From positions 4,896,001 to 4,960,000 of the forward strand of contig OZ241867.1 in NCBI GenBank assembly GCA_965203175.1: 64,000 nt of DNA. The letters run 5' to 3'. The translations under genes and the position numbers were made by a program. Numbering within the stretch: position 1 is the stretch's first letter; each line of letters begins with the position of its first letter. The notes beneath the pieces were generated by a model that worked only from the letters and a program-made list of their open reading frames with translations, had not been told where the DNA came from and searched no databases. The stretch is from Candidatus Latescibacterota bacterium (GTDB lineage Bacteria; Latescibacterota; UBA2968; UBA8231). Of this stretch, positions 40,717 through 64,000 are shown piece by piece.

Positions 40717-40747
40717 CTCGCCGGTTATCTTGACATCCGGCGACGAG
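40717..40747 (+). repeat. Partial copy 1 of ADH-promoter repeat
   Basis: CTCGCCGGTTATCTTGACATCCGGCGACGAG vs CTCGCCGATTACCTTGACGTCGGCGACGAG at 62118. Confidence 0.65.
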
Positions 40748-40830
40748 GGCGGGAACGCGGTGGTAGGTTTGCGGTGATGGGTCGGGAGACGTTTTTTTTC
40801 GGATGAATAGACTCTTCTAGGTCACGGAGC

Positions 40831-40920
40831 ATGATGATGAAATTTATTCTTTTGCTTTTGACCTTATACTTAGGCACATCACCTGTGTTAGGAAAAAGAC
40901 TCCAAGTTGAAGGGCCATGA
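40831..40920 (+). pseudogene. 29-aa signal-peptide-only gene stub
   Basis: RBS GGAG; MMMKFILLLLTLYLGTSPVLGKRLQVEGP* in AT-rich patch. Confidence 0.4.
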
Positions 40921-40960
40921 GCAAGATGCCGTTAATGTATGCGTCGAAGGAGGAGCCGAC

Positions 40961-42184
40961 ATGAAAATTACCGATGTAAAGAGTGCAATCATCGGCAGTA
41001 ACATCGTAATCCGCGTAGTGACCGATAAGGGAATCGATGGATACGGCGAAGTGGAGGAAGGTAAAGATTTTGTACAGCCCTTGGTTTCCTATTACAAAGA
41101 TCTGATCCTTGGCTGCGATCCGACAAACGTGGAATTCGTCATGCGCCGCATCCGGCGAGCAGGCGCGTTCAAGCCGTGGGGAAAAATCGTCAGCACGATT
41201 GAAATGGCCCTTTGGGACATCGCGGGCAAAGACGCGGGCATTCCGGTGTACAAGCTGCTCGGTGGGAAGGTGCGCAACAGGGTCCGAGTGTACAACGGGA
41301 GCTTTGGCAATCCGAATCCCCCCCACCCCGTGGCCGATACACCGGAAAAACAGGGTGAGAACATTCTCGCCCTGCGCGAGCTGCCCGAGGGCTTTACGAT
41401 TGTCAAAAACGCCGGCGTGTTCCACGGCTCGAGTTTTTTCCAATCGGTCGGCCTCGACGAACCCGCGTACAACACCTATCCGCAGGTGCCAGAGGCCTCT
41501 TGGATGTTAGACAACGGGAGCTTGCTCACAGAAGAGGCACTCGACGCGTACATCGACCATGTCGCTAGGATAAAGAGCGTGGTGAAGAACCGGGTAGGCC
41601 TCGCCTTAGACTGCGGACCGGGCATGACTGCAGTGGATGCCCTGAAGCTCGCCAAAGCGCTCGAGCCGTTCAACATCGTGTGGCTGGAGGACACGATCGC
41701 GGGTGACTATACACCGTTTACGCTGGCACACGTCTATCGGGATATTACAATCAATACGACCACTCCCATCCACACCGGAGAGCAGATCTACCTGCGCCAG
41801 AACTTCCGCGAACTGATCGAAAACCGAGCAGTGAACGTGATTGGGCCGGATCCGGCCGACGTAGGTGGCATCGCGGAACTGAAGTGGATTGCCGAATACG
41901 CGGATTTGCACGGAATCCTCATGGCACCGCACGGCACGATCGACGGCGTGTTCGGCATGGCAGCGCTCACTCACGTATGCTCCACAATGCCGCAAAACTT
42001 CATCGCCTACGAGTACCCGGCCGCCCATCCCGATTGGTGGTACGACATCGTAGATGGTCTGCCCGATCCGCTGCTGCGGGACGGCCACGTAACCGTATGG
42101 GATAAGCCCGGCTTTGGCGTCGAGTTCAACGTGAACAAGGCGTCCGAATACCTCCGAGAAGAGGACAAGGATTTCTTCAAATAA
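40961..42184 (+). CDS. Mandelate racemase/muconate lactonizing enzyme family
   Basis: MKITDVK, IEMALWDIAGK..G.PVYKLLGG, WLED, TGE; RBS AGGAGGAG. Confidence 0.9.
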   Translation: MKITDVKSAIIGSNIVIRVVTDKGIDGYGEVEEGKDFVQPLVSYYKDLILGCDPTNVEFVMRRIRRAGAFKPWGKIVSTIEMALWDIAGKDAGIPVYKLLGGKVRNRVRVYNGSFGNPNPPHPVADTPEKQGENILALRELPEGFTIVKNAGVFHGSSFFQSVGLDEPAYNTYPQVPEASWMLDNGSLLTEEALDAYIDHVARIKSVVKNRVGLALDCGPGMTAVDALKLAKALEPFNIVWLEDTIAGDYTPFTLAHVYRDITINTTTPIHTGEQIYLRQNFRELIENRAVNVIGPDPADVGGIAELKWIAEYADLHGILMAPHGTIDGVFGMAALTHVCSTMPQNFIAYEYPAAHPDWWYDIVDGLPDPLLRDGHVTVWDKPGFGVEFNVNKASEYLREEDKDFFK

Positions 42185-42205
42185 TCGAAATATCCAATAA
42201 ATCCC

Positions 42206-43204
42206 ATGACACAAGTAATCTCCACTGTCGACCTTGACCGCGATGGCAAGCAAATCGGCTGGCTGCATGTGCCGCATTCGGTCACTCGCAGCGCCTACGG
42301 GGTACTGCCCATCCCCATCGCCGTCATTCGCAATGGTCCCGGGCCGCAGGTCCTGCTGACAGCCGGCAATCACGGCGACGAGTACGAGGGCCAGGTGGTC
42401 CTGACGCGCTTGATCCAAGAGTTGCAGCCCGAACAAATCCGAGGCAGCCTCATCATCATACCAGCGCTGAATCAACCAGCCGTGCTAGCGGCAGCGCGGG
42501 TCAGTCCGCTGGACGCAGGGAATCTGAACAGAGTCTTCCCAGGCGACCCCGAGGGCGGACCGACGTGGAAAATTGCAGACTACGTCGAACAGCATCTACT
42601 GCCGAGAGTTGAAGTAGTGGCCGACTTCCACGGCGGCGGGGCCTCCCTAGAATACCGACCACACGCCAGCACCCACTTCGGTCCCGACACATCCTCTGAG
42701 CACAAGCACCTAAGCCTGGATTTGGTTTCCAAGTTGGGTGTGCCACACGTAATGGTTTTCGAGAATCATACTGATAAGGGAGGACTACCCGATGCCGCCA
42801 TTCGGCAGGGCGTGATCTCTCTAGGCGGGGAATACGGTGGAACGGGTAGCGTATCGCGGTCCGGGGTAAAGCTGGTGCAACAGGCGGTTGATCGATTGCT
42901 GGCAGCTCTGGGAATTAAGGGCGCGCTGCCGGATGACCTCGATACGCCTCAGGTTCTATACATCTTCGGCCCCGACGCGTACGCTTATGCACCGGAGCCA
43001 GGCCTGTTCGACCCGGCTACCGATCTGGGCGATGAGGTGAGTGTCGGCGATCTGTGCGGTCAGGTTCTGTTTCCGGAGAATCCTGTGCGCCCCCCCGTGC
43101 CCGTTACTTTCCGCGGCGAGGGTACGGTAGTCTGCAAACGGCACCCAGGCAGGGTGGAAGCCGGAGACTGCGTCGCCCACCTAGCAACCCCGGTAAGCGA
43201 TTGA
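42206..43204 (+). CDS. Succinylglutamate desuccinylase/aspartoacylase family (DoeB-like deacylase)
   Basis: GNHGDEYEG, NLNRVFPG, DFHGGG, EYGG. Confidence 0.85.
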   Translation: MTQVISTVDLDRDGKQIGWLHVPHSVTRSAYGVLPIPIAVIRNGPGPQVLLTAGNHGDEYEGQVVLTRLIQELQPEQIRGSLIIIPALNQPAVLAAARVSPLDAGNLNRVFPGDPEGGPTWKIADYVEQHLLPRVEVVADFHGGGASLEYRPHASTHFGPDTSSEHKHLSLDLVSKLGVPHVMVFENHTDKGGLPDAAIRQGVISLGGEYGGTGSVSRSGVKLVQQAVDRLLAALGIKGALPDDLDTPQVLYIFGPDAYAYAPEPGLFDPATDLGDEVSVGDLCGQVLFPENPVRPPVPVTFRGEGTVVCKRHPGRVEAGDCVAHLATPVSD

Positions 43205-43222
43205 CCACTTCCCGGCAATCCC

Positions 43223-43966
43223 TCACTCAATTTCATATACCACCGTGACATTCACGGTGACAGCGAGCTCACCTGGGGCAATGGGAGTGGAAGTACGCGC
43301 GGCATTATCGAAGGCGGCTTCCGCCGTCCTCGCAAACGGAATTGGAGGACCTTCGAAATAGGTACTCTCAGTGATGTTAATAGGTTCTCCTAGCCTTACA
43401 CCGCTCGCTTTCGCTAAGGTTTGTGCTTTCGCTTCAGCATCTTCTACCGCCAAACTACGCGCCTGGGTTTGCAATGGTGCAGTATCATCAATCATAAATT
43501 GAATGGTGTTAATGACGATGCTGTTTCCTCCCGCTGCGGCGGCATCATCTATGACATCACTGAGGGTTTCCAATTCTCGAACCTTCACCCGAACGGTGTT
43601 GCTTACCATGTAACCACGAAGTATGCGGTTGTTTCCTGAATAGTCGTACTGGGGATAGATACTGAAATTCTCAGTTTTAATATCTTTTTCAGCAATGTTG
43701 TTCTCTTTTAGCGAAGCTATTAACGCGGTCATCGCACTCGCGGCTTCTTCACGTGCCTCTACGACAGTCTCCTTCTCAACAGACACACCTACATTGAGCA
43801 ATGCAATATCTGGTTCACCAGTAACTGAACCACTCCCGGTCACATGGATAGTTCTGTCCGTTGCTGAGGATGATAACACCTCCGAAGCAATATTCACATC
43901 ACAAGCAGTGAGGGCTAAAATCAGCAATGTGCCGATCGTTAAAGACCAATAATTACACCTTTTCAT
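43223..43966 (-). CDS. SIMPL (DUF541) domain lipoprotein
   Basis: Lipobox LTAC; IHVTGSGSV..EPDIA, IYPQYDY, AVEDAEAKA, PGE...VNVTVVY. Confidence 0.88.
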   Translation of the reverse strand: MKRCNYWSLTIGTLLILALTACDVNIASEVLSSSATDRTIHVTGSGSVTGEPDIALLNVGVSVEKETVVEAREEAASAMTALIASLKENNIAEKDIKTENFSIYPQYDYSGNNRILRGYMVSNTVRVKVRELETLSDVIDDAAAAGGNSIVINTIQFMIDDTAPLQTQARSLAVEDAEAKAQTLAKASGVRLGEPINITESTYFEGPPIPFARTAEAAFDNAARTSTPIAPGELAVTVNVTVVYEIE

Positions 43967-43985
43967 AGATACCTCCCGTGAGACG

Positions 43986-44283
43986 GCCGACTTGAGTCGG
44001 CAGAGGGATAGGGATTGAAACGGCGATGAAGCCGAAACGCACAAGGCGTTTTGGCTTGCTGAGTAGGTTCAAACTTGACGCGGTTCCATGAGGACGGTAT
44101 CCCTTTTGGCAGGTTGAGCACCCGACCTTCAGCGCCTGCTCGGCTCAACCTTCGGGGCGGGTGGTACGCAACGTCTGTTGCCTCTACCGCTCCTGGCGTT
44201 CGCCGAGCAGTACCCATCCCCAATGCCAGACGGTGCTGCGGCAGGATGGGGAGGAGGCCAGTAGAGACGGCGACGGTCTCTAC
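43986..44283. repeat. Cluster of REP-like palindromes
   Basis: GCCGACT-TG-AGTCGGC (43986), AGGTTGAGC..GCTCAACCT (44111-44151), GCAAC..GTTGC-CTCTAC (44168), GTAGAGAC..GTCTCTAC (44261-44283). Confidence 0.55.
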
Positions 44284-44484
44284 GCCAAGCAGCCAGTGCG
44301 GTTGTAATGGGTCTCGTATACTCTTCCGGTTCGTCCCAGGCCGGGTCGCGGCGGTAGGGCCGGAGAGGGTAAAGCCGATTGCTTTAGCTATCGGTGGCAT
44401 TACTTTTCCTCCTATGAATCTCGACGAAAACAAGCCCTGGCCGCCAGTGGGCCGCCCTCTAGCAGGACCAACGCCTGAACCAAG

Positions 44485-44567
44485 AGCGCCGCAACGCACA
44501 GCCAAGCCGCTCCAAAGACGCCGACACCGCTTGACCTGTTCCCTGAAAGGCCCTTTATAATTCCTAT
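44485..44567 (+). promoter_or_regulatory. Dispersed promoter repeat (copy of 53278-53359)
   Basis: AAAGAC.CC.ACAC.GCTTGACCTG...AAAGG.CCTTTATAAT.CCTAT shared with 53306-53359. Confidence 0.65.
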
Positions 44568-44673
44568 ACAATTCCGAGATCTGTTGCAAGCTTTCTCGAA
44601 TTAGGATCCGACTACTTTTTAGAAACCGCTTAGACGGCAATGTTCCGCGCCCAGCCAGTGCACGAGGTGACCT

Positions 44674-46236: not shown

Positions 46237-46316
46237 TACCGCATTCAGTCTCTAGCATCGAATAAGCTCGTTCATGGCCAAGTACATATTGGCAAAGTAT
46301 GAAGAGTTCGCTAGAT

Positions 46317-46354
46317 TCTTACTATAAAGTTGGAGTCTTCAAAAAAAGTAGGAA
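46317..46354. promoter_or_regulatory. Probable AbrB-type TA autoregulatory operator
   Basis: TTCTTACT...AGTAGGAA imperfect inverted repeat just upstream of antitoxin. Confidence 0.4.
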
Positions 46355-46373
46355 CCAACGAAAGGAGCACGCG

Positions 46374-46616
46374 ATGGCCGTCGCCAAACTAACCTCCAAA
46401 GGACAACTGGTCATTCCCCAAGCCATACGCCAGCACCTGCACCTACAGCAGGGCGACAGCGTGGATTTTATCATCCAAGACAATGGCGAAGTGGTCGTCA
46501 AACCGGCCACCCGGGATGTGCGAGCCCTAAAGAATATCCTGCCGAAACCCAAGAAGGCCGTATCGCTAGAGAAAATGGATCGCGCGGTGCGCGAGGGTGC
46601 GGCAAAAGCGCTGTGA
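46374..46616 (+). CDS. AbrB/MazE/SpoVT-family antitoxin
   Basis: LTSKGQLVIP..IR..L.LQQGD; RBS AAGGAG. Confidence 0.88.
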   Translation: MAVAKLTSKGQLVIPQAIRQHLHLQQGDSVDFIIQDNGEVVVKPATRDVRALKNILPKPKKAVSLEKMDRAVREGAAKAL

Positions 46617-47008
46617 GGGGGCTGGATACCAATGTGCTGGTGCGCTATCTAGTGCAGGACGATGCGGCACAGGCGCGGCGCGCGGCAAAAGAGATCGAAG
46701 CGGGATCGGATGCGGGCGAGATCTATTTTATTGCCGATGTCGTCGTCTGCGAGCTAGTATGGGTGCTCGATCGGGCCTATGGATACAGCCGGGCGCAGAT
46801 TGGCGACGCGCTGGAGGGCATTTTGCAGACGCGCTCATTTCATTTTGTGGACAAAGACCTGCTCTGGCAGGGGCTGGGCGATTACAAAAAGGGTAGGGGC
46901 GACTTTGCCGACTATGTGATTGGGCGCGTGGGCGAAAAGTCTGGGTGCGAAAAAACGCTCAGTTTTGATCGTGCCTTAAAAAGCGATGTACGATTTGAAG
47001 TGCTTTAG
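46613..47008 (+). CDS. vapC: VapC PIN-domain toxin
   Basis: LDTNVLVR, ELVWVL, DFAD, SFDRAL; GTGA overlap with antitoxin. Confidence 0.9.
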   Translation: MRGLDTNVLVRYLVQDDAAQARRAAKEIEAGSDAGEIYFIADVVVCELVWVLDRAYGYSRAQIGDALEGILQTRSFHFVDKDLLWQGLGDYKKGRGDFADYVIGRVGEKSGCEKTLSFDRALKSDVRFEVL

Positions 47009-47147
47009 GGAAGTCCGCATGGTATGGTATGCGAGTGATTAATCGGCAAGTAATCCAAATGAAAGTCTCTGAATTGGAAGCGGCACCTGACGAGCTTCGT
47101 GCTCATTGGTTGTTGAGAAGCAAACTAGCTATAGCGAGGAATATCCC

Positions 47148-47969
47148 ATGTCACTGCACAAACCCTTTACAGAAGAAGAACTAGCGCCAATTCTCGAAGA
47201 TTTTTACAAAAACGGCGCGACCATCATCCGCAACGTCTTATCCCGAGAAGAATGCGAGCAAATATGCAGCCGCGTCGACCAGATCTTCGCCGAACCTTAT
47301 TTCACCGAAATGCGGAATGTAAAAATAAGGCCAGAGCTCGATGGCAAAGCGCCCATCGTTGTCCATCGGCTATTTGAATGCGACCGGATGTTCCGCGACC
47401 TGCTCGTGCGCGAGCCTATCATATCTATTGCCGAAACAGTCCTCGGCCCACAGTGCCATTGCATGGCGCAGGGATGCATCTTGAACCGCAGGGATATGGG
47501 CATTAACCGCTTTCACCTAGATGACAGCCTGGAATTTCCAATTGCGGACGACAATATCAGCAGTCACGACCGGCGTCTGCAGATGCCCGTTTTTCGCATG
47601 TCGTTCCAGATCGCCCTGACAGACCAAGACGAAGACCAATATGGCCCCAGCCAATTCGTGCCGGGCAGCCACTATGCGGGCAGACACCCCGACGATCCAG
47701 AAAATCCAACCTTCGACGGCCAAGGCCCCACGTCCCTGCTCATGCAAGCGGGAGACCTCTACCTCCTCAGCAGCCAAACCTGGCATCGCGGTGCCCCCAA
47801 TACATCGGATCGCGTCCGCTACCTCTTTCACCAAGTCTATGGTCAGCGCTTCGTCGCCCAGCGATTCTGGCCCTATCTCAACTATCACATGCCCGATTAC
47901 GTCCTCGAAGGCGCCGACGAACGCCTCCTGCGCGTCCTTGGCAAACACCCCGAAATGGCCTATGGATAA
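47148..47969 (+). CDS. PhyH-family dioxygenase
   Basis: HLD, VPGSH, AGD, WHRG..NTS. Confidence 0.85.
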   Translation: MSLHKPFTEEELAPILEDFYKNGATIIRNVLSREECEQICSRVDQIFAEPYFTEMRNVKIRPELDGKAPIVVHRLFECDRMFRDLLVREPIISIAETVLGPQCHCMAQGCILNRRDMGINRFHLDDSLEFPIADDNISSHDRRLQMPVFRMSFQIALTDQDEDQYGPSQFVPGSHYAGRHPDDPENPTFDGQGPTSLLMQAGDLYLLSSQTWHRGAPNTSDRVRYLFHQVYGQRFVAQRFWPYLNYHMPDYVLEGADERLLRVLGKHPEMAYG

Positions 47970-47995
47970 GCCGCCACGCAACATTAGGCGTAAAA

Positions 47996-49378
47996 ATGAC
48001 CGGTAAGCGACCAAATGTAGTCGTGTTTTTGACCGACGACCAAGGCTATGGCGATCTGGGAATCTATGGAAACCCGGACCTGAACACGCCCCACATCGAC
48101 CGCATCGGGCGAGAGGGGTTGTGTCTGAATCAGCATTATTCCGCATCGCCGATCTGTGCACCGGCCCGGGCAGCTTTTTTAACCGGCCGCTACAATCACC
48201 GCGTAGGCGCATTGAGCGTAGAGTCAAACCGCGGACTGGACCGAATCGCACTCGGAGAATCCACCATCGCGGATTTATTCAAAGCAAACGGCTATACAAC
48301 GGGAATGATAGGAAAGTGGCACAACGGACTACACGACATGCGCTATCATCCGAATAATCGGGGATTCGATGAATTTGCGGGATTTTTAAACGGAGGAATG
48401 AATTACTGGAACTGGATCATCGAATACAACGGGCAGCCAAAATGGTCAGACGGGCGCTATCTGACCGATGTATTTACGCAGGACGCCATCGAATTTATCA
48501 AACGGCACAAAACAGAGCCGTTTTTTCTCTATGTGGCCTACAACGCACCGCACGGTCCACTCGAAGCACCAGAAGAAGATGTCCGACCCTTTGCAGAAAT
48601 GGAAAAATTCACCCAGGCCGTGTGTCTGACCTACGGAATGATCCGGCGGATGGACACCGGAGTCGGACAGATCCTGGATACACTGGAACAACAGGGCCTG
48701 GCGGAAGATACAATAGTACTTTACACCAGCGACAATGGGCCTGTCCACTTCGGCAAGGGTGAAAGAGACCAGACGCGCTACAACGGGCCATTTCGAGGCG
48801 TGAAATACGATGTACTCGAAGGCGGAATCCGCGTGCCGGGCCTGATCCGCTGGCCGACGGGCCTGCCGCAGGGCCAGACCTATGACGGAATGCTGCATTT
48901 TACAGACTGGATGCCCACCCTATTAAAGGCGTGTGGAATCGACATGCAAACGCCCACAGACGGGATGGATGTCCTATCCGCATTACAGGGAAACAATGGA
49001 ACGCTTCCCACCAAACGATTCTGGCAATTCAACCGCTATGACCCCATCGGCACATGTAATGCCGCGATGAGAGACGGAGAATGGAAACTCTACTGCCCCC
49101 CCATTGAAGAGGCAATGCAAAAATTGAACTCGGATAATCTGTCATACGAGAAAAATCTCGAAGGACCGCATTTTCTGCTGGATGTGGAAAATCCACCTGT
49201 GGAACGGACCCTGTCACCGCCCAGCAACCCAGAACTTTACAATATTGAAAACGATCCGCACGAAAACATCGACCTCGCACAACAACAACCAGACCGCGTC
49301 CAGCGCATGAAACGCGAATTGGAAACGTGGTTTGAAACAGTAGAAGTGGACCGGCGGCGTATCGCGCCAAACAGGTGA
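47996..49378 (+). CDS. Cys-type sulfatase (arylsulfatase-like)
   Basis: DDQGYGD, CAPARAAFLTGR formylglycine motif, GKWH, SDNG, EGGIRVP. Confidence 0.92.
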   Translation: MTGKRPNVVVFLTDDQGYGDLGIYGNPDLNTPHIDRIGREGLCLNQHYSASPICAPARAAFLTGRYNHRVGALSVESNRGLDRIALGESTIADLFKANGYTTGMIGKWHNGLHDMRYHPNNRGFDEFAGFLNGGMNYWNWIIEYNGQPKWSDGRYLTDVFTQDAIEFIKRHKTEPFFLYVAYNAPHGPLEAPEEDVRPFAEMEKFTQAVCLTYGMIRRMDTGVGQILDTLEQQGLAEDTIVLYTSDNGPVHFGKGERDQTRYNGPFRGVKYDVLEGGIRVPGLIRWPTGLPQGQTYDGMLHFTDWMPTLLKACGIDMQTPTDGMDVLSALQGNNGTLPTKRFWQFNRYDPIGTCNAAMRDGEWKLYCPPIEEAMQKLNSDNLSYEKNLEGPHFLLDVENPPVERTLSPPSNPELYNIENDPHENIDLAQQQPDRVQRMKRELETWFETVEVDRRRIAPNR

Positions 49379-49441
49379 GCTGCCCTATTCGACCGCCAAC
49401 AGCCGGTTGCGCACCGGGAGACTTACGAGAGGAGACCATTA

Positions 49442-50287: not shown

Positions 50288-50302
50288 GGATTGAGCCAAT
50301 AT

Positions 50303-51625: not shown

Positions 51626-51678
51626 GCTCTGTCCTCCTACTTCTGTCCCTGAATTGAATACCTAAGGCCACAGGAGAA

Positions 51679-53139: not shown

Positions 53140-53230
53140 GCCTATCCTCGTCTTGGTCTAGCTTTTGATTGTTATCCTGGGTGAAGAGGAATGACCTCTA
53201 CGACCTTGGTACGGATTGTTAAGAATAGGT

Positions 53231-53359
53231 GGGATTATAAAAGGCCTTTAGATGTGTGTCCAGCGGTGTGATTCCCTAGCGCCCCAACACAAGCGAGGCC
53301 GTCTCAAAGACACCTACACTGCTTGACCTGACCTCTCAAAGGTCCTTTATAATCCCTAT
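53231..53359. promoter_or_regulatory. Bidirectional promoter built from two inverted homologous arms
   Basis: Left arm minus strand TGGACA-N17-TATAAT; right arm TTGACC-N19-TATAAT; ends GGGATTATAAA / TTTATAATCCC. Confidence 0.65.
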
Positions 53360-53379
53360 CCATAAGGGAGATAGGTAAC

Positions 53380-54381
53380 ATGATTAAACTGGGTATGATC
53401 GGCTGTGGCGGCATGGGGGGTGCTCACATGCGGCGGTTTCACACTCTGAGCGATCGGGTCGCATTGACCGCGGTGGTCGATGTTGTTCCCGAGCGTGCAG
53501 AGGCCGTCGCGCAGCAATTTCCGGGAGCCTGTGTGGCGACAGATTATCGCGAGATTTTAGACTCGGTAGATGCCGTATTGCTCGCGCTACCCCACCATTT
53601 GCACGCTTCCGTAGGACAGGCGTGTCTCAATGCGGGCGTCCATGTCTTGCTCGAAAAACCCATGGCCAATAGTGAAGCCGCCTGCCAAGAACTGATGGAA
53701 GCATCTGCAACCTCGGGCAAGGTGCTGATGATTGCGTATTGCATGCGCTTTCATCCCATTGTCCAGCGTTTGCAAGCACTATTAGATGAAGGCGCGTACG
53801 GCGATGTATTTCAAGTGTCGATCTGGACCGAGCAACTCACTCGCTACCCCCCCGATCACTGGGCTTCGAGCCAAGAGCGCTTGGGCGGCGGGCAGTTGTT
53901 TAGTCACGGCTGTCATTACATCGATTTGCTGCTCTGGTTTTTGGGCCGACCCGTGCAGGGCATGCACATGGGTACCAATTTTGGCACGCCGTGGATGGAG
54001 CGCGAAGGCACGAGCAATGTGACGATGGAATTTGCCGATGGCCGCCTAGGGTATCACTTCGGCACTTGGGGCGCGCGGGGCACCCGATTGCGCTACTCAA
54101 TCCACGCGCATTGCACCGAAGGTATGCTCGACGCCGATATCTCCGGCGGCAAACTCGTGCATATCCTACGCGGTCAAGAGGAAGTTTTGTTCGAAGCAGA
54201 GCCGGGCAAACACACGGAAAACGAGATGGCCCATTTCCTCGATTGCATTGAAACCGGTCAAACGCCGCTGACCGATGGCAAAAGCAGCTTGCAGGGCCTG
54301 CGCGTGATCTGGCGGCTATACGAAGCCGAGCAAGCAGGGCATATTGCAGATTTGACGGGCTTGGGTTTGGACGAGGCCTGA
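53380..54381 (+). CDS. Gfo/Idh/MocA oxidoreductase
   Basis: GMIGCGGMG, HVLLEKP, GGG...HGCH.ID. Confidence 0.92.
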   Translation: MIKLGMIGCGGMGGAHMRRFHTLSDRVALTAVVDVVPERAEAVAQQFPGACVATDYREILDSVDAVLLALPHHLHASVGQACLNAGVHVLLEKPMANSEAACQELMEASATSGKVLMIAYCMRFHPIVQRLQALLDEGAYGDVFQVSIWTEQLTRYPPDHWASSQERLGGGQLFSHGCHYIDLLLWFLGRPVQGMHMGTNFGTPWMEREGTSNVTMEFADGRLGYHFGTWGARGTRLRYSIHAHCTEGMLDADISGGKLVHILRGQEEVLFEAEPGKHTENEMAHFLDCIETGQTPLTDGKSSLQGLRVIWRLYEAEQAGHIADLTGLGLDEA

Positions 54382-54388
54382 CCTGCGA

Positions 54389-55456: not shown

Positions 55457-55642
55457 TTTCGCACCTCGAAATAAGATTTGTGGTTTCCGCTTGGCGTAGC
55501 CTAACACCCTTCGTGCCTTGTTGTCAATGTTTGGCTGGTTCCTGTTGACGAGTGTTCGGGGGGCGTTACCTTACGGGAAGACTTCACGGGTGCATCGAAC
55601 GCAGCGCAAAACCAACCTTCTACGGAGGTCGATCCGCCGGTA

Positions 55643-56458
55643 ATGATGATCTCGGAAAAAGACAAAGAGACGTACGCCGAGCAAGGGTTTCTCGTTCTGC
55701 GTCAAGCCTTTACTCAAACTCGCATCGCGACACTGCTCGAAGGGATCGAACGCCTGATCGACAAGGGGCTTGCGGGAGAGTGCGAGATAGGCTGGATTGA
55801 CCGCGAGCGCCGTCTGCCGTCCCGCACTGGCCACCTGCTCAACCCCGATAAGTACCACCCTGCCTTCGCCGATTGGATCGACGCGGATCTCGCACCCCAT
55901 CTCGAAGCCCTCGTCTCCGGCCCGAGAGTGCGTCACAGCCTGTTCGGCATGCTCGCCAGCGGCGGCGAGAAGCCCTACACCCAGAATTGGCACCGCGACC
56001 TCTGCAAACCGGGCGACGAGGAAGAAACCGCGTACCTGCGCCGACACGAGGGCACCTTCGTACAGTTCAACGCCCCGCTCGTTTCCGGAGACCGCTTCCT
56101 CAATATCGTCCCCGGGAGTCACCTGCGAGCGTCGACTGCCGCGGAAATCGAAGCGTCCCGCAACGAATCGGGAGACATGCCCAACGCCCACGTCGTCGAA
56201 CTGGAACCGGGCGACATCGCCTACTACAACGCCAACCTCTGGCACCGAGGCTGGAACCCAGAGGGACGCAAGCGCTGGACCATGCACTGCGCCTTCTGGA
56301 GCGCTGGGACGAAGGTGATGACGCACGAGTACGGACAGCGCGAACAACTGACCCAACAGGGGCATCTAGAGCAAATGCCCCCCATTACGCGGCAGTACAT
56401 ACAGAGCTACCTCGACAACTATCCCGAGGCAGACCCGCCCTCCATGTTCGACCTGTAG
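55643..56458 (+). CDS. PhyH-family dioxygenase
   Basis: QGFLVL, WHRD, VPGSH, PGD, LWHRG. Confidence 0.85.
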   Translation: MMISEKDKETYAEQGFLVLRQAFTQTRIATLLEGIERLIDKGLAGECEIGWIDRERRLPSRTGHLLNPDKYHPAFADWIDADLAPHLEALVSGPRVRHSLFGMLASGGEKPYTQNWHRDLCKPGDEEETAYLRRHEGTFVQFNAPLVSGDRFLNIVPGSHLRASTAAEIEASRNESGDMPNAHVVELEPGDIAYYNANLWHRGWNPEGRKRWTMHCAFWSAGTKVMTHEYGQREQLTQQGHLEQMPPITRQYIQSYLDNYPEADPPSMFDL

Positions 56459-56517
56459 CCATAGCTTGATCGTCCAACCAGGTCTTGCTTCGTCCGCGAT
56501 GAGTTCGGGATTTGGTT

Positions 56518-57639: not shown

Positions 57640-57901
57640 TGTTGCTTCCTTTCCTAATTCGGTTGAATGTTGGCTTACTCGCCCTGCCTAGTTGTACCGG
57701 CAGATGTTGATCAGCGCTTGGCTCGGCTGCTGCGAGCCCTATCGAAAAACAGGGAGCCTACCCTGCCCTTCGGGTGCGTTCAGCACCTTGAGAGAAGCCC
57801 CCAAAAGCTCCTTATTTTACCTACACGCTATAAAAATTGATGCGGCAGATTTTGTTTGCAAACCCGATGCAGTAGTGATATGCGATACTGTGATGGCATA
57901 A

Positions 57902-58046
57902 GAAGCTGTCTGAAAACTAGGGTTTCGGTCTCTCACTCGGCTCAAAGTATCTAGGACCGAGGGCGTTTCGCCCTATGAAAAACGCTTGGCACCAGGGCCG
58001 GTCGACAGCCCGAAAAGCAGCCCGAGGGGAGTCTTCAGACGGCTTC
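57902..58046. mobile_element. 145-bp MITE, IS5-family-like ends, TAA target duplication
   Basis: TIRs GAAGCTGTCTGAAAACT / reverse complement GAAGCCGTCTGAAGACT (15/17); TAA at 57899-57901 and 58047-58049. Confidence 0.7.
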
Positions 58047-58105
58047 TAAGAGGCTTCGGCATTTTAGTATTATTATTTTGCACGGTGAAACGGAGATAGA
58101 CGGCA

Positions 58106-59047
58106 ATGAGTGCAAAATACGAATGGATCTGCGTCACTGAGAGCGCGGCCTTCGCGGCGCGCGATGGTGCTGGCGCACTGGTGTTCCAAGATAAAATGTG
58201 GCTACTGGGCGGCTGGAATCCCGGCGATAAAGTCCACTTCCCGCTGATCTGCAACAGCGAGGTCTGGTCGTCGGTCGATGGCACCTCCTGGACGCTTGAG
58301 AATCCCCAAGCGCCCTGGGAAGGAAGGCATACAGCCGGATATGTGGTGCACAACGACCGGATGTGGATCGTGGGCGGCGATTGCAATCAAGGCCATTATC
58401 AGAACGATGTCTGGAGCAGTGCGGACGGTATTCATTGGGCTCTAGCTAATGATCACGTGCCGTGGGCTCCCCGAGTGCTTCATTATACCCTGGCCTTCGA
58501 CGGCAGAATCTGGGTTATGGGTGGGCAAACCATTCCCAATTTTGCCGACGCTGACGAGGTCTTCCACAACGACGTGTGGAGTTCGGAAGATGGGGTAAAC
58601 TGGACCCGAGTTACCGAGAGTGCTCCGTGGGTGCCCAGAGGGATGATCGGCGGAGCCGCTGTGCACGACAACAGGATGTGGATTCTGGGTGGAGGCACAT
58701 ACGATACGCCTGCAACTCCCATGCGCAATTTCTACAATGATGTGTGGAGTTCGGACGACGGGATTAACTGGAAACAGCACACAGCGCACGCCCCGTGGAC
58801 GCCCAGACAATACCACGAGGTGGCCGCGTTCGATGACCATCTGTGGGTGTTAGAAGGCTACGCGGCAGAGAGCGGTAATCGTCGCGATGTGTGGTATTCA
58901 CCCGATGGCGTAAACTGGACCGAATTGCCCGATACCCCTTGGGCACCTCGCCATGCCGGGAGCGTGTTCGTGTACGACGGGTCGCTGTGGATGGTGGCGG
59001 GGAATAATATGGAGCCAGATGCTTGGAGGCTTACGCGCAGGAAATAG
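58106..59047 (+). CDS. Kelch-like beta-propeller repeat protein
   Basis: About 6 repeats of PW..R......(M/I)W..GG...NDVWSS.DG..W. Confidence 0.8.
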   Translation: MSAKYEWICVTESAAFAARDGAGALVFQDKMWLLGGWNPGDKVHFPLICNSEVWSSVDGTSWTLENPQAPWEGRHTAGYVVHNDRMWIVGGDCNQGHYQNDVWSSADGIHWALANDHVPWAPRVLHYTLAFDGRIWVMGGQTIPNFADADEVFHNDVWSSEDGVNWTRVTESAPWVPRGMIGGAAVHDNRMWILGGGTYDTPATPMRNFYNDVWSSDDGINWKQHTAHAPWTPRQYHEVAAFDDHLWVLEGYAAESGNRRDVWYSPDGVNWTELPDTPWAPRHAGSVFVYDGSLWMVAGNNMEPDAWRLTRRK

Positions 59048-59054
59048 GTGTCTT

Positions 59055-59900
59055 ATGGACCGCAGAATGGAAGAATACCGCGCTCAGGGTTATACCGTAT
59101 TCGAGGGGCTGTACGACGAAGCCACCATGCAGGCCTGGCGCGCCGAGCAGGATCGGCTACAAACCATCTCCACGAAGGGACCCGGCGTGCAAGAACCGAC
59201 CACTTGGTTCGGCAATATGCTCGAACGAGCGCCGCAATTGATGTGGCCAGCAGTGGCTCATCCGGCCATTCTCGACTTTGCCGAGCAAGTGGTGGGACCT
59301 TTCGTGCAACTCGACAACCTCACCTTAGCCGCCTTTCCCTCCATGGATCCGGAAGAAGCCGCTGGCAAGGTCAGTGCTTGGCACCGAGATCGCTGGGCTC
59401 GCATGCCCAACGGCGCGTACGAACGCCCGCTGGCCTTTAATGCTATCTGCTATCTGCAGGACCTGGACGACGAGTACGGCCCACTCAGAGTGCTGCCCGG
59501 TTCTCACGTCGAACCCATCGCCTTAGCCGAAGAAGAAATCCGCAAGCCGCACCAAGACGAACTGTTGATCTACATGAAAGCCGGCGATGTGGTTTTGACC
59601 CACAATGGCCTGCTGCACTCGGGGACGCCCAATACCTCGGGACGCAAGCGCTACTTCTTCAGTGTGTACTACAATATCTCCTGGCTCAAACACACGGATA
59701 CGTTCACCGGACCCAACTGCCAACAACTCATCAATTGGGCCCGGAGCCGACAGGACCACCGGGCCCTACGCTTGCTGGGTCAAGACGAGCACTTGCAGAG
59801 CCGCGCCAACAGCGGTTTCCAGCAACCCGACGAAGCGCGCTGGCGTCAGTGGGCCCAAGCCGACCAACAAGCAATGGAAGAGGCCACCATGCAAGAATAG
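59055..59900 (+). CDS. PhyH-family dioxygenase
   Basis: QGYTVF, WHRD, LPGSH, AGDV, LHSG..NTS. Confidence 0.85.
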   Translation: MDRRMEEYRAQGYTVFEGLYDEATMQAWRAEQDRLQTISTKGPGVQEPTTWFGNMLERAPQLMWPAVAHPAILDFAEQVVGPFVQLDNLTLAAFPSMDPEEAAGKVSAWHRDRWARMPNGAYERPLAFNAICYLQDLDDEYGPLRVLPGSHVEPIALAEEEIRKPHQDELLIYMKAGDVVLTHNGLLHSGTPNTSGRKRYFFSVYYNISWLKHTDTFTGPNCQQLINWARSRQDHRALRLLGQDEHLQSRANSGFQQPDEARWRQWAQADQQAMEEATMQE

Positions 59901-59932
59901 TTCGGTTTCGGTCTCCCGTCAAAACGACGGAG

Positions 59933-59973
59933 GACACGATGTTAGCTTTCAAACTACCTAAACCGAGTGTGAC
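59933..59973 (+). repeat. Duplicated 5' stub of the acyltransferase gene
   Basis: 38/41 nt identical to 62202-62242; encodes MLAFKLPKPSVT vs MLAFKPPKPSVT. Confidence 0.8.
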
Positions 59974-60061
59974 AGCGCGGCGGTTGTCGCCGAAAGCGGG
60001 AACGCGGTGGCAGTATAGGAAGGGGAGAGTTGGCTCGTCAGCCAATACCTCTTTATCCTCC

Positions 60062-61384
60062 TTATTTTGACGAGTACGTTTTAATCGCATTTCGGAAAGC
60101 AGCACCACAAAGCCATATCCAAACTAATCGAAAAATACCTATTATGTTTAATCCAACTTCACCCAACAAAAATTCTCTCTCAATGATCGTATACGTACAA
60201 TTGTCAAGAACATCCTTTAAGCTATCTGCATAAAAAAATATCTTAGCAGGTGTATATGTACAGAAATTCAAATACGTCTCCCAAGATACCTCTCTCATTC
60301 CACCAAACCTAGCCCAAATAAGTGGTATAGAATTAATAATGAAATATCCCAAAAGCAACAAGCTAATAGGCCGAATCCAAGACATATAAAAACGAGACGA
60401 TGTCCAACGCCATCCCAATAAAAGCCAATTTTGTAACCCTCGCCAACTCTTGTACCATTTGCTGTTTTTCACTTCTGCATATTCAACCAATGAAATATAG
60501 CTAGCAATAGTATTCTCTTGATCTATATCATTTCTCATATGTGCTAAATTTTTCAACCTAACAAACAGATCCTTCATATAATAAAATTCTCCAACATATG
60601 TTCTTACATAACAAGTATCCAGTAATCTCCATCCTATTTTCTCATTGCGATCAAAAGATATACTTAACAAAGTATACTCCTGAACATCATCATATTTCAC
60701 AACATCACCGTGATGATCAAATTTTCTACGATTAACCATCTGATCCCACTTCAAAACATTCACTTCATTACCACCAATAAAACGACAGCTTATTGGATAC
60801 CTAAACGGAAAAGGAAAATCTAAATTCAACTCCATAAATCTATTTTCTTTAAATTCCAAAGATATCCACTTTCTTTTGTCAATATCATTACTCTTAATAG
60901 TAACATGCGAAAAATTATTTTTTTCAAAAACTACACTGCTGCGACCTGGAAAAGAAAACGAACAATTTCCTGTGCTTCTTGCAAAACTCAATGATTCTCC
61001 AATATAAGGATCATCAAATTCAGGAATAAATTTTATACCAGTCTCCCCAATATTACTCTTAAAAAAACGACAACTATCGAAATGTAAACTCGCTGACATA
61101 TTCGAAACTCCATATCTTATCTCAACCTCATGATTAGAACAACTTTCGTCGCGACTATCAGTGATTTCAATATCAAGATTTTTTATATGGAGAACTACAA
61201 CATCCCAACCTCTTTCATTATTACTACCACTTGCTAAACTCCATCGAACATACCCTTCTAATACACTTCCCTCACCTGGTATTACTTGCTTACTCAAAAT
61301 ACGGGATAACTCATCACTCAAAGCACGAGACAACTCATCGCAAGGCACCTCTTTTCTTGTCTTAACGGATTCTTGTTCGGACAT
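60062..61384 (-). CDS. AT-rich hypothetical membrane protein (pentapeptide-like N-region, C-terminal TM helices)
   Basis: 440-aa ORF, strongly AT-rich relative to window; LHFDSCRF/FEKNNF repeats; WTSSRFYMSWIRPISLLL TM region. Confidence 0.65.
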   Translation of the reverse strand: MSEQESVKTRKEVPCDELSRALSDELSRILSKQVIPGEGSVLEGYVRWSLASGSNNERGWDVVVLHIKNLDIEITDSRDESCSNHEVEIRYGVSNMSASLHFDSCRFFKSNIGETGIKFIPEFDDPYIGESLSFARSTGNCSFSFPGRSSVVFEKNNFSHVTIKSNDIDKRKWISLEFKENRFMELNLDFPFPFRYPISCRFIGGNEVNVLKWDQMVNRRKFDHHGDVVKYDDVQEYTLLSISFDRNEKIGWRLLDTCYVRTYVGEFYYMKDLFVRLKNLAHMRNDIDQENTIASYISLVEYAEVKNSKWYKSWRGLQNWLLLGWRWTSSRFYMSWIRPISLLLLGYFIINSIPLIWARFGGMREVSWETYLNFCTYTPAKIFFYADSLKDVLDNCTYTIIEREFLLGEVGLNIIGIFRLVWIWLCGAAFRNAIKTYSSK

Positions 61385-61445
61385 TCCATAGATCCTTTAA
61401 AAAAATTGATAATACTCGTCCTATAACCATATAACCAAAGCGAAT

Positions 61446-61814
61446 TTAAGACATCTCTAGGGCGCGTTTGACCGATCTGGGGTCACGGGCGATTAGGCGC
61501 AGGAGCGTGCGGGCCGCCTGATCCGGTTGATAGCGCCCCTGTTCCCAGTCTCGCACCGTCGCCAAAGAAAGCTGAAACGTAGTGGCGAATTCGCGCTGAG
61601 TTAAACGCAGGGCCTTGCGGATCGCCTTAGTGTCGGGAACGCGCTCAAATGCTTCGAGCTCCTCATCCGTCAAAGGTGTATTGTCGGGATCGGACAACGC
61701 GGCCTTCTCAATATCCTCGTCGCTCATGGCATCGAGACGTTGCGCCTGGGCCTTGCTCAGACGCGGTAGGTTCTTTTCATCCAGCCTAAATTTCGTGGTA
61801 TTTTCTTCGCTCAT
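61446..61814 (-). CDS. HTH (HigA-like) antitoxin
   Basis: IRKALRLTQREFA..F.LS..TVRDWEQGR..PD.AAR. Confidence 0.85.
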   Translation of the reverse strand: MSEENTTKFRLDEKNLPRLSKAQAQRLDAMSDEDIEKAALSDPDNTPLTDEELEAFERVPDTKAIRKALRLTQREFATTFQLSLATVRDWEQGRYQPDQAARTLLRLIARDPRSVKRALEMS

Positions 61815-62056
61815 GACGCGTTGCTCTCCGGGCAGAGATGATTCGAGTTCGTGAAAAACGTTCTGTAATAGACTACGAGCAACACGCGATCATCGACCAT
61901 GCCAATGACGCGACGGCGCACTTCCCCCTCGTATTCTATCAGCTCCTCTTCTTCTAATCAGTAGGGATCAAGGAACACTCGCGCGGCGTATTCAAACGGA
62001 ATCCCATGCTTGGCCAGATTCATCGCCGCTTTGTCCTCATCCCATTCGAATTCCAT
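61786..62056 (-). pseudogene. brnT: BrnT-family toxin pseudogene
   Basis: MEFEWDEDKAAMNLAKHGIPF...DPY*...; in-frame TGA at 61958-61960 plus frameshift before RIISARRA. Confidence 0.85.
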
Positions 62057-62066
62057 GAGACTAATA

Positions 62067-62081
62067 TACGGGATTCCCGTA
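62067..62081. promoter_or_regulatory. Palindromic operator upstream of TA operon
   Basis: TACGGGA-T-TCCCGTA 11 nt upstream of brnT start. Confidence 0.55.
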
Positions 62082-62117
62082 GTTCTATCAATGAAGGCGT
62101 GGACTGCCAACCCAGCC

Positions 62118-62201
62118 CTCGCCGATTACCTTGACGTCGGCGACGAGCACTAACTACTTTCTCTGCTGTACACAGGATTGTCCATGCCCTTCCAAACATG
62201 A
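62118..62201 (+). repeat. Copy of ADH promoter, RBS and first 5 codons (mini-ORF MPFQT*)
   Basis: Aligns along its length with 63443-63524, ending in identical GTCCATGCCCTTCCAAAC. Confidence 0.8.
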
Positions 62202-62207
62202 GACGCG

Positions 62208-63425
62208 ATGTTAGCTTTCAAACCACCGAAACCGAGTGTGACGACGATTCAAACTATACAAGCCCTGATACCGCTTGTGAATCGCTTGTATTTGAAAGGG
62301 CTAACGCTGGATGTCGATGCAGAGTCCATTGCTCGGTTGGAGGCCATACGCGGGCATTCTACGGTCTTAGCCCCTAACCATCCGGCGCACGAAGATCCTA
62401 TGGTTATGTTCCTCTTGTCAAAGCGGTTATCGCAACCGTTCTACTACATGGCAGCTCGGGAAGCCTTCGACAGGGGTAGATTCGGGACTATCCGATGCTA
62501 TCTGATGCAGCGGTGCGGTGTGTACTCGGTTGTGCGCGGCACTGTAGATAGAGATGCCTTTCGCATGACGCGGGCGCTTTTGTTTAAGGGCGATTGGCCG
62601 ATTGTCATCTTCGGCGAAGGGGAAATTTCGCGCCAAAATGATACCGTCATGCGCTTTGAGAGAGGCATTGTCCAGATGTGCTTCTGGGCTTTGGACGATA
62701 TGGAAAAAGCGCAAGTCGGCAAATCGCTCTACGCTGTGCCCGTCGGCATCAAATATCACTATCCACGCGACATGTGGAATTCTATTGATGTTGCTCTCAC
62801 GAGGTTAGAACGGTATATCCTCCCGCCTGCCGAACAGATGCCAGTAGAGCGCTACGATCGATTGCGCCGCATCGGTGTCGCGATAGTCAGGACACTCGCA
62901 GCGGAATATCAGTATAAGATGGACGAAACCGTGTCCCTTGATGTCCATATCGAAAGGCTGAAAGATGCGATCCTGTCCCATGCCGAAGGGATTATGGGCA
63001 TCCAAACTGAATCCGACATACTCACAAGGACGCGTGCGTTGAAAAACATAGTCGATGCCGAAATTTATAAGGACATTGAGCAGATGACGGAGTACGAGCA
63101 GAAAATACACGGAGAGCAGCTCCAGAAATTTCAACAATTCTATCCCGATCTGGAGCGGTTGATCAATTTTATATCAATCTCTGACGGGTATGTTGCTGAA
63201 GAACCGTCGCCAGAGCGATTTCTCGATGTGATTCTCCGTCTTGAAAGAGAAGTCTTTGGTAGGTCAGAAATGCGCGGGCCGCGAGTGGCATCCGTCCGCG
63301 TCGGCGAACCGAAAGATCTTCGGGAACGTTACGACACCTACAGAACTCAAAAAAGAGAAACAGTAGAACAGATAACCCATGAACTTGAAACATCGGTTCA
63401 GAGTTTGGTCGGCGGGTCATCCTAA
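62208..63425 (+). CDS. Phospholipid/glycerol acyltransferase (PlsC-like)
   Basis: APNHPAHED (HxxxxD), IFGEG, VPVGIKY. Confidence 0.85.
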   Translation: MLAFKPPKPSVTTIQTIQALIPLVNRLYLKGLTLDVDAESIARLEAIRGHSTVLAPNHPAHEDPMVMFLLSKRLSQPFYYMAAREAFDRGRFGTIRCYLMQRCGVYSVVRGTVDRDAFRMTRALLFKGDWPIVIFGEGEISRQNDTVMRFERGIVQMCFWALDDMEKAQVGKSLYAVPVGIKYHYPRDMWNSIDVALTRLERYILPPAEQMPVERYDRLRRIGVAIVRTLAAEYQYKMDETVSLDVHIERLKDAILSHAEGIMGIQTESDILTRTRALKNIVDAEIYKDIEQMTEYEQKIHGEQLQKFQQFYPDLERLINFISISDGYVAEEPSPERFLDVILRLEREVFGRSEMRGPRVASVRVGEPKDLRERYDTYRTQKRETVEQITHELETSVQSLVGGSS

Positions 63426-63510
63426 CCTTATGCAGATAGCGCCCCGCCAGTTACCTTGACATCGACGACAAGCGCTAGCTACTTTCCCTCTTGTACATAG
63501 AGGATCGTCC

Positions 63511-64000
63511 ATGCCCTTCCAAACCCACTTCGACTTCCGCCATCCCACCCGTATCGTCCACGGCCCCGGGTCTATCGCCTGCTTGGCGGATTGTTTCTCA
63601 CCGGCCGACAAGGTACTGATCGTCTCCGATCAGGTCTTAGGAGAAATCGGCACCGTGGAAGCCGTCACCGCCGCTCTCGGCAACATCCCCCATGCCGTCT
63701 ATCTCAAAGACGGTTCGAGCGAGCCGACCCAAGAAGCCGTCGAAGATGGAGTCCAAGCTTACCGACAAGAACGCTGTACCGCCATCATCGGCCTCGGCGG
63801 TGGCTCGCCCATGGACGTGGCCAAGATGATCGGCGTCCTCGCATCCAATAACGGACGCATCACCCAGTATCTGGGCAGTGACAAAGTCGCAAACGATCTA
63901 CCCTATCTCGCCTGCGTTCCCACGACCTACGGCACCGCCAGCGAAGTCACGCCCTTCGCCGTACTGGACAATCCCGCCAGCGGCAACAAAGACCCAGTCA
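63511..64000 (+). CDS. Iron-containing alcohol dehydrogenase (3'-truncated by window edge)
   Basis: MPFQTHFDFRHPTRIVHGPG..., IGLGGGSPMDVAK, VPTTYGTASE; missing from ORF track because no stop in window. Confidence 0.9.
   Translation, partial: MPFQTHFDFRHPTRIVHGPGSIACLADCFSPADKVLIVSDQVLGEIGTVEAVTAALGNIPHAVYLKDGSSEPTQEAVEDGVQAYRQERCTAIIGLGGGSPMDVAKMIGVLASNNGRITQYLGSDKVANDLPYLACVPTTYGTASEVTPFAVLDNPASGNKDPV

Follow-up and report, generated by a model that had tools for sequence, protein, structure and literature searches.

How do genes come and go in a chromosomal interval that varies between close relatives, and why should such an interval contain truncated copies of the starts of its own genes? 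This question is raised by a 64-kb stretch of DNA (positions 4896001-4960000, referred to here as the window) in the single-contig 6.58-Mb genome of a Candidatus Latescibacterota bacterium (G000; 59% guanine plus cytosine, GC). Here an accessory interval lies between a gene of the AIR-synthase family, on the left, and the gene for an iron-containing alcohol dehydrogenase (Fe-ADH, or ADH), on the right. A preliminary description of the window had proposed that this interval grows as an integron-like array, by insertion of genes at promoters and start codons. We compared the interval with its counterparts in 18 congeners (19 genomes with G000) and found that it is a recombination hotspot that holds differing gene sets within one Latescibacterota genus. 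We read its repeats as scars that remained when divergent haplotypes of the locus recombined unequally and, in part, illegitimately, an interpretation to which we give a probability of roughly 0.6. It is a known kind of event, met here in a new lineage and with unusually legible nested scars, and it reveals no new kind of machinery.

The two main duplications noted in the preliminary description are real and specific to this locus (all features are listed in Table 1). The first involves a segment from upstream of ADH together with the beginning of the gene itself. The copy ahead of the acyltransferase gene (p, 62117-62197, to 62201) and the copy at ADH (p', 63442-63524) are 80-82% identical over 83 nt, and the short MPFQT reading frame in p ends at a stop codon six bases ahead of the acyltransferase ATG. 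The second involves the start of the acyltransferase gene, which is present both as an isolated stub (a, 59933-59973) and at the intact gene (a', 62202-62242), with 38 of 41 positions alike. Based on whole-genome blastn-short searches, each pair is confined to this single locus in the 6.58-Mb genome, and a search with a 28-nt core that tolerated up to six substitutions returned these two places only. A third, partial copy of the ADH-upstream segment had also been proposed. Taken alone, it is below blastn-short significance (at 40717-40747), but its homology is clear once relatives are included, as it agrees with the acyltransferase-proximal copy of G023 at 31 of 33 aligned positions, plus one indel. 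The sequence of this third copy is broken at differing points in different relatives. A segment downstream of the left border gene (dn) likewise has a second copy (dn') that begins at the end of stub a. Homologs of dn are situated after the gene for PhyH2, a PhyH-family dioxygenase, in G002, G013, G022, and G023, and after the border gene in G007, G014, and G019. The repeats did not prove to be generic promoter motifs and the relatives did not show the same gene order, either of which the preliminary description had considered fatal to its proposal, and we therefore consider this a real variable site.

The comparison of the ADH ends was the most informative, as six arrangements were found among the 19 genomes. 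Five genomes have p and ADH alone. The order is PhyH2 - x - antitoxin - toxin - p - ADH in G013; acyltransferase - antitoxin - toxin remnant - p - ADH in G007; and PhyH2 - acyltransferase - p - ADH in G001, G006, and G011. The order antitoxin - toxin - p - acyltransferase - p' - ADH is present in G000 and seven others, and G008 has this same order without the toxin-antitoxin pair. The two-copy state, in which the acyltransferase lies behind an ADH-upstream copy, is thus found in nine of the 19 genomes, and the other 10 have one p. In the three genomes with a single a (G001, G006, and G011), PhyH2 directly abuts a and the acyltransferase, an adjacency that is also seen in more distant Latescibacterota genera. 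The left flank of p in the two-copy genomes is the same as the flank before the single p in G002, G005, G007, G013, and G019, while the left flank of p' is the 3' flank of the acyltransferase gene. Based on these matches, the acyltransferase and p' sit between the old p and ADH. The join between p and a', after ADH codon 5, starts with the last 4 nt of PhyH2, stop codon included. In the nine two-copy genomes, the identity of p to the p' of the same genome ranges from 62 to 88% (73-88% if G008 is set aside), while the acyltransferase-proximal p copies form a class of their own with a mean identity of 89% to one another. The divergence between p and p' is therefore greater than that between orthologous copies of p, as it should be if p and p' have separate lineages as their source.

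These arrangements are most simply accounted for if DNA from a relative with another arrangement recombined unevenly with the locus, one end pairing by homology in a shared gene and the other undergoing an illegitimate join, which needs scarcely any homology or none, to a point that does not correspond. The stretch between the two non-corresponding points would then end up on both sides of the new DNA as a long target duplication, one duplicate staying on the intact gene and the other being left as a stub. We place the homologous anchor in a shared gene because PhyH2, the acyltransferase, and ADH are all common to both presumed partners. In the first of the events at the ADH end, a haplotype ending in toxin-antitoxin - p - ADH would have been joined, at ADH codon 5, to a PhyH2 - acyltransferase - p - ADH haplotype, at the PhyH2 stop codon, and the product of that join would be the p - acyltransferase - p' - ADH order now present in nine genomes. 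A later event, restricted to G000, would have connected the acyltransferase gene, at codon 12-13, with the post-PhyH2 sequence of those genomes, leaving stub a. An older event would have split the ADH upstream segment and left its left half stranded beside the border gene. The recombination pathway and the direction of each step are what we infer from comparing sequences. The join of a and dn' falls within a 10/11-nt run that is common to acyltransferase codons 10-13 and to the post-PhyH2 sequence of G002, G013, G022, and G023; this run is either the microhomology of the second unequal join or a small older remnant. The three genomes with PhyH2 next to the acyltransferase were considered as the ancestral empty site, into which an insertion would have produced the two-copy state, and we have not kept that assignment; either direction is possible, and only the join is claimed.

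The preliminary description also proposed that newcomers inherit expression signals, and this stands in part. The acyltransferase does lie behind an ADH-upstream copy in all of the two-copy genomes, and copy p may now drive it. The promoter function of p is putative, based on a conserved TTGACA box and on position, for p as for p'.

The same pattern was found at four further loci of the G000 genome, and at each of them the repeat is single and the insert missing in some congeners. At L120, a 147-nt repeat of the 3' end of an MgtE gene is associated with a DNA methylase gene (empty site in G013 and G021), while at L124 a 101-nt repeat located before a gene start is associated with genes for an Eco57I-like methylase and a BsuBI/PstI endonuclease (empty site in G011). 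The repeat at L121 is 120 nt from the end of an EamA gene and the cargo is an enolase-superfamily gene (empty site in G002). The repeats at L119, of 230 and 63 nt, derive from the end of an enolase-superfamily gene, and the cargo comprises a STAND NTPase gene, a paralogous gene, and a copy of an IS5-family element (empty site in most relatives). The L121 insert (L121:3170-4345, corresponding to G000:C1:5963170-5964345) is 98-99% identical in G003, G012, and G041, with flanks of about 91-93% identity, which suggests that it has spread very recently among species of the genus. The IS5-family insertion sequence (DDE_Tnp_1) is about 940 bp long (L119:2500-3439, corresponding to G000:C1:396500-397439); there are several copies in G000 and at least 10 in some congeners.

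The gene content of the interval supports the view that this is an accessory region, as had been proposed. Among the 17 genomes in which both borders were covered, the distance from the border gene to ADH ranges from about 1.3 kb in G004, a near-empty junction, to 29.4 kb in G001. Mapping of the window proteins on the 18 congener intervals revealed presence and absence gene by gene (the first enolase-superfamily gene, for example, is in three of the 19 genomes), consistent with the earlier statement that genes are gained or lost one or a few at a time. Four of the island genes, those for a PhyH-type protein (47106-47969), a sulfatase (47996-49378), a GFO/IDH/MocA oxidoreductase (53380-54381), and a Kelch protein (58106-59047), have 82-92% DNA identity to genomes of another family in the same class, where the matching genes sit at scattered loci. 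The neighboring 20-kb core stretch is only 65-73% identical to those same genomes, and this difference indicates that genes have been exchanged recently between the families. Domain searches of the large open reading frames (ORFs) in 39694-63999 against Pfam, NCBIfam, PADLOC, and PHROGs identified no integrase or transposase domain, and no tRNA or tmRNA gene was found in the window, in agreement with the preliminary description. Since its content varies, and since several of its genes are so much closer than the core to those of another family, we regard the interval as a genuine accessory hotspot that lacks an integrase and is supplied by horizontal transfer.

A number of points weigh against our interpretation of the repeats as scars of unequal joins between haplotypes. 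The pathway is drawn from end states, no event having been observed, and the p|a' join has at most 1-2 nt of microhomology. Ku was not found. Domains of ComEC and DprA are present, although these say little about competence because 10 of 14 control genomes also have them. The tree of the ADH flank for the 19 genomes is almost unresolved, with two of 16 inner branches well supported, and for this reason ancestral states and the direction of several steps could not be placed. A simple sigma-70 scan called neither p nor p' a promoter, and it is the miss of copy p that counts here. The L119 insert holds a copy of the IS5-family transposase and so is not free of mobile genes, and the genome-wide census of scars described below was built on crude ORF-based gene calls. 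Lastly, what is left of an earlier acyltransferase copy could account for the 10/11-nt run where a meets dn', which would favor duplication followed by decay.

In that alternative, a tandem duplication within the chromosome, extending from the acyltransferase leader to ADH codon 5, was followed by decay, the first acyltransferase gene being for the most part lost by deletion or replaced by the low-GC and toxin-antitoxin genes so that stub a was left. Duplication of an a-acyltransferase-p unit does predict the order a ... p - a' - acyltransferase - p' - ADH, the acyltransferase - antitoxin - ADH arrangement of G007 and of locus L059 is a possible parent, and the remnant of acyltransferase codons 10-13 could have been kept by all two-copy genomes. 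A simple tandem duplication of the PhyH2-acyltransferase-ADH arrangement would place the acyltransferase 3' flank to the left of p, however, and in the two-copy genomes that position is occupied by the old flank of the ADH promoter, which runs on into the toxin gene. Furthermore, stub a is present in only one of the nine two-copy genomes, several extra deletions or replacements are required, and p and p' differ by 12-38% within single genomes (12-27% without G008) as compared to 7% for a and a'. We consider this explanation rather unlikely.

Also rather improbable, in our estimation, is integration of the Campbell type, in which segments would excise as circles via their flanking repeats and return to the same or a related genome through one homologous crossover within a short piece common to both, a piece that would then border the insert on either side. 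Repeats of 41-83 nt with 80-93% identity are in general short for efficient homologous crossover. One crossover of a circle containing the 83-nt p piece and the acyltransferase would yield exactly p - acyltransferase - p'. The high identity of the L121 insert relative to its flanks is as expected for recent spread of the insert itself, and a circle life cycle of this kind was hypothesized for restriction-modification units with long direct repeats (Furuta et al., 2010; PMC2853133). No circle junction was seen, and formation of the first circle, with p joined to the acyltransferase leader, would still require an illegitimate join.

The proposal that recombination is aimed at promoters or start codons is not supported. 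At this locus, relatives have duplications of a gene end: the 3' end of the border gene is duplicated around a 3.2-kb insert, over 505 bp in G003 and 387 bp in G001. The sulfatase gene of G000 took the place of a 53-nt spacer with no flanking duplication, and the apparent stub at 40831 is what a deletion or replacement left behind (see below). The 3.2-kb insert is common to G003 and G001, is located after the border gene, and holds a 610-amino acid ORF without known function. The preliminary description had also proposed a genome-wide test for enrichment of gene 5' ends among intergenic copies. We conducted a census of isolated short direct repeats inside 60-kb windows over the whole G000 genome, which contained 193 such local repeats, and scored the pairs with one intergenic copy for the orientation expected of an insertion scar. 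The intergenic copy matched a gene start in 18 pairs and a gene end in 19; nine of the former and 15 of the latter were in scar orientation, so that 3' scars outnumbered 5' scars. The DNA between scar-oriented copies had a GC content of 54.4% vs. 59.0% for the genome. Each junction has repeats of its own, so that the junctions share no recombination site and do not resemble an integron.

These results make a dedicated capture system, in which an unrecognized recombinase places genes at expression signals in the manner of an integron, very improbable. Three duplications at this locus do involve either the same ADH upstream segment or a gene start, the acyltransferase is preceded by a copied upstream segment with a short coupled frame, and two island ORFs, of 486 and 373 amino acids, match no family and have no relative among solved structures. 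Set against this, the island has no integrase or transposase domain, its genes are on both strands, no motif is common from join to join, 3'-end duplications occur at the same locus in relatives, 3' scars are at least as common as 5' scars genome-wide, and the sulfatase insertion has no duplication at all. An assembly artefact, in which repeats caused a chimeric join, can be credited with the occurrence of stub a together with the low-GC gene in G000 only, but its likelihood is close to negligible as p - acyltransferase - p' recurs in nine separate assemblies, G023 has a diverged low-GC homolog (77% DNA identity) at the same position, and repeats this short and diverged (41-83 nt, 80-93% identity) are in general unable to mislead long-read assembly.

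Among known systems, the best fit for the unequal joins is insertion with long target duplication, presumably arising by homology-facilitated illegitimate recombination. Insertions of this type were reportedly first described by Nobusato et al. in 2000. In a later paper on this class (Furuta, Abe and Kobayashi, 2010; PMC2853133), the criteria are a repeat of >30 bp, an insert of <20 kb, absence of a mobility gene and a single copy of the repeat in the empty genome; the class is defined around restriction-modification cargo, and DNA double-strand breakage by the cargo is suspected. The repeats described here all exceed 30 bp (41 nt for a/a', 83 nt for p/p', 505 and 387 nt in G003 and G001, and 100-230 nt elsewhere). 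They are single-copy in relatives without the insert (a in G001, G006, and G011; p in 10 of 19 genomes; and all four further loci) and otherwise unique in the G000 genome. The inserts at this locus are 2.2 and 1.2 kb in length and have no integrase or transposase, L119 with its IS5-family copy being the exception among the loci. As in that class, repeats often overlap a gene end and inserts are often of lower GC. The differences are in the cargo and in the nesting of the scars at one hotspot. Unlike the restriction-modification definition, the cargo in the window comprises acyltransferase, toxin-antitoxin, and membrane-protein genes, and the other G000 loci carry enolase-superfamily and STAND NTPase genes besides methylase and restriction genes. 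Restriction-modification cargo, an Eco57I-like methylase with BsuBI/PstI, is present at L124 of this same genome.

A second parallel is with the stub-leaving arrays of orphan immunity genes for T6SS (type VI secretion system) in Vibrio cholerae, for which one-anchor illegitimate recombination was proposed (PMC5361080). Its authors also cite Rhs orphan arrays, and they drew and then rejected a parallel with integrons. The features shared with our locus are the combination, putative here, of one homologous anchor with one illegitimate join, the displacement of older pieces by successive events, the truncated genes left behind, and the lack of an integrase. Unlike those arrays, which as described there consist of one functional class (effector/immunity) behind a conserved anchor gene, the cargo here consists of unrelated metabolic and defense genes, and the anchors have seemingly been used on either side.

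The resemblance to integrons, by comparison, is limited to the piecemeal gain of single genes at one site and to the ability of a newcomer to use a resident promoter. No IntI domain was detected in any large ORF of 39694-63999. Neither attI nor attC was found: there was no recurrent intergenic repeat, the inverted repeats were scattered pairs at chance level, and none of the Rfam families scored as high as its gathering threshold anywhere in the window. Integron cassettes are promoterless, have one orientation, and share a common promoter, whereas the genes of the island are on both strands and the promoter would have been copied, not shared. The integron-like accretion array of the preliminary description was consequently set aside. 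The interval is also unlike islands formed by integrases at tRNA genes, as the window has neither a tRNA or tmRNA target nor an integrase.

Flexible genomic islands are hotspots without mobile-element genes, for which recombination in the borders is presumed and a scar-free double homologous crossover is the usual model. Our locus is similar to these in having two conserved border genes around content that differs between close relatives, and dissimilar in that more than one event has produced long duplications that make the joins legible. Such a crossover is the usual explanation for single-gene gain at hotspots free of integrases and transposases; here the joins have been kept, and intermediate states are present in about 20 genomes of a single genus, most of them complete, which makes the steps readable nucleotide by nucleotide. 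A pattern known mainly for restriction-modification genes is thereby extended to metabolic and defense cargo in an uncultured candidate phylum, and the case shows one way in which a newly placed gene can acquire a promoter copy. A wider statement would be that, in this genus, insertion with long target duplication is a general, cargo-independent route of gene gain that has been used dozens of times per genome, with nested scars recording the order of events and newcomers sometimes being handed the expression signals of a neighbor. We offer this as a tentative and somewhat doubtful extension; its bolder form is that some unrecognized function of the host or of an element promotes the unequal joins.

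Table 1. Features of the accessory interval and its borders (positions in the window).
Feature	Position	Strand	Remarks
Left border gene, AIR-synthase family ("HypE-like")	39694..40707	+	Pfam AIRS and AIRS_C; present in relatives, partial copy only in G004
Third, partial ADH-upstream copy	40717..40754	+	Left half, to spacer past TTGACA box; directly after border gene
dn, border-gene downstream segment	40738..40766	+	Second copy 59985-60013, 78-85% (repeat families D6, D12)
5' remnant (29 codons, signal peptide) of secreted-protein gene	40831..40920	+	Fused to upstream region of next gene; from reading of the sequence
437-nt non-coding repeat element	43967..44403	-	Between ribosome-binding site and ATG of SIMPL gene (43223-43966, -); G000 only at this site
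Sulfatase gene insertion	47979..49426	+	G000 only; 85-88% DNA identity to genomes of another family
PhyH-type dioxygenase	55643..56458	+	PhyH domain; high third-position GC
PhyH2, PhyH-family dioxygenase	58953..59900	+	Followed directly by acyltransferase in three relatives and in more distant genera
Stub a	59933..59973	+	6-nt leader and first 12 acyltransferase codons, GGAGG box ahead; G000 only among 19 genomes
dn', second copy of border-gene downstream segment	59974..60015	+	Begins at join with stub a
Low-GC gene, 440-amino acid predicted membrane protein	60062..61384	-	About 35% GC in its kilobase; third-position GC 0.27
HTH antitoxin, MqsA/BrnA type	61446..61814	-	Pfam HTH_3, MqsA_antitoxin; NCBIfam TIGR03830 E 2.6e-11, below family cut-off
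Toxin partner of HTH antitoxin	61833..62057	-	Three-frame translations
Copy p	62117..62201	+	ADH upstream segment, ADH ATG and 4 codons (MPFQT), then stop; adjoins acyltransferase leader
Acyltransferase, intact	62208..63425 (a' and gene 62202..63425)	+	Pfam Acyltransferase PF01553
Copy p'	63442..63524	+	ADH-proximal upstream segment and first 5 Fe-ADH codons; repeat of copy p
Right border gene, Fe-ADH	63511..63999, runs off window	+	Pfam Fe-ADH; 19/19 genomes

The left border gene had been labeled HypE-like; its product scores 103 bits against the NCBIfam hypE model, for which the cut-off is 251.6 bits, and we have assigned it to the AIR-synthase family. The approximately 20 genes between the borders, which are on both strands, are mostly of ordinary metabolic types. 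They include genes for enolase-superfamily enzymes, a deacylase, a SIMPL protein, the sulfatase, an acetoacetate-decarboxylase-like protein, an FAD oxidoreductase, the GFO/IDH/MocA oxidoreductase, the Kelch protein, a relative of exosialidases (a 504-amino acid ORF whose solved relative is an exosialidase, E 4.8e-15), the acyltransferase, and three PhyH-type dioxygenases, along with two toxin-antitoxin pairs and the low-GC gene, which could be assigned to no family. The first PhyH-type gene in Table 1 is overlapped on the opposite strand by a long ORF (55571-56365, -); based on its PhyH domain and high third-position GC, the plus-strand frame is probably the real gene of this pair.

Several of these genes merit further comment. 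The low-GC gene has a homolog at the same place in G023 (62% amino acid and 77% DNA identity) and is restricted to G000 and G023. Its product had no match in Pfam, PADLOC, NCBIfam, or PHROGs, and a protein atlas gave only a lead, with a recognition value under the guide value, to Bacteroidota membrane proteins that are ion-channel-like or have pentapeptide repeats. The toxin gene next to the HTH antitoxin gene, intact in G003, G013, G014, G021, and G023, has been disrupted in G000, where it contains a frameshift and an in-frame stop (one of each); its product is putatively BrnT-like. The other pair, a MazE-type antitoxin and a PIN-domain toxin (46299-47008), is also inside the island and has 86-99% amino acid identity in most congeners. 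Homologs of the acyltransferase with 65-75% amino acid identity were found in many records titled Candidatus Poribacteria, and the gene thus appears to be shared across candidate phyla. In addition, a promoter-like segment (TTGACC, 19 nt, TATAAT) is situated upstream of the exosialidase-like gene and of the GFO/IDH/MocA gene (44500-44593 and 53292-53385; 72% identity over 94 nt), and related copies are located 3 Mb away (G000:C1:1776652-1776713 and 1782201-1782261). This segment could reflect common regulation of the two genes or one more duplication of old date.

Two minor stubs had been reported besides those discussed above. The one at 40831 is a real gene start of 29 codons, and we read it as a deletion or replacement remnant; in G013, G008, and G002 the corresponding start opens a long frame at this position. 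The other, at 44400, does not represent the start of a gene but the region where ribosomes natively bind for the minus-strand SIMPL gene, displaced by the 437-bp element at 43967-44403. None of the 18 relatives compared has this element at the site, and when 43900-44470 was searched against Rfam by E-value, one chance-level hit was the only result; the RNA fold z-score of the element is -1.99. The six insertions that we examined (including further loci L130-L134) all adjoin a TCAT tetranucleotide, and no transposase was found next to the copies examined. In four of the six, the element immediately precedes the ATG of a long ORF, in the orientation of the gene and with a GGAGG box at ribosome-binding distance at its end, the SIMPL gene being one of these four ORFs. 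The idea that the element aims at start codons was dropped, as all six copies abut TCAT and survival of harmless insertions could give the ATG bias. It may be a non-autonomous element of the single-strand-transposon type. The distribution of the element in the genus is patchy and its copy number low, with matches in 13 of 26 genomes, and a second copy in G000 (G000:C1:5446543-5446979) is 97.5% identical to the first.

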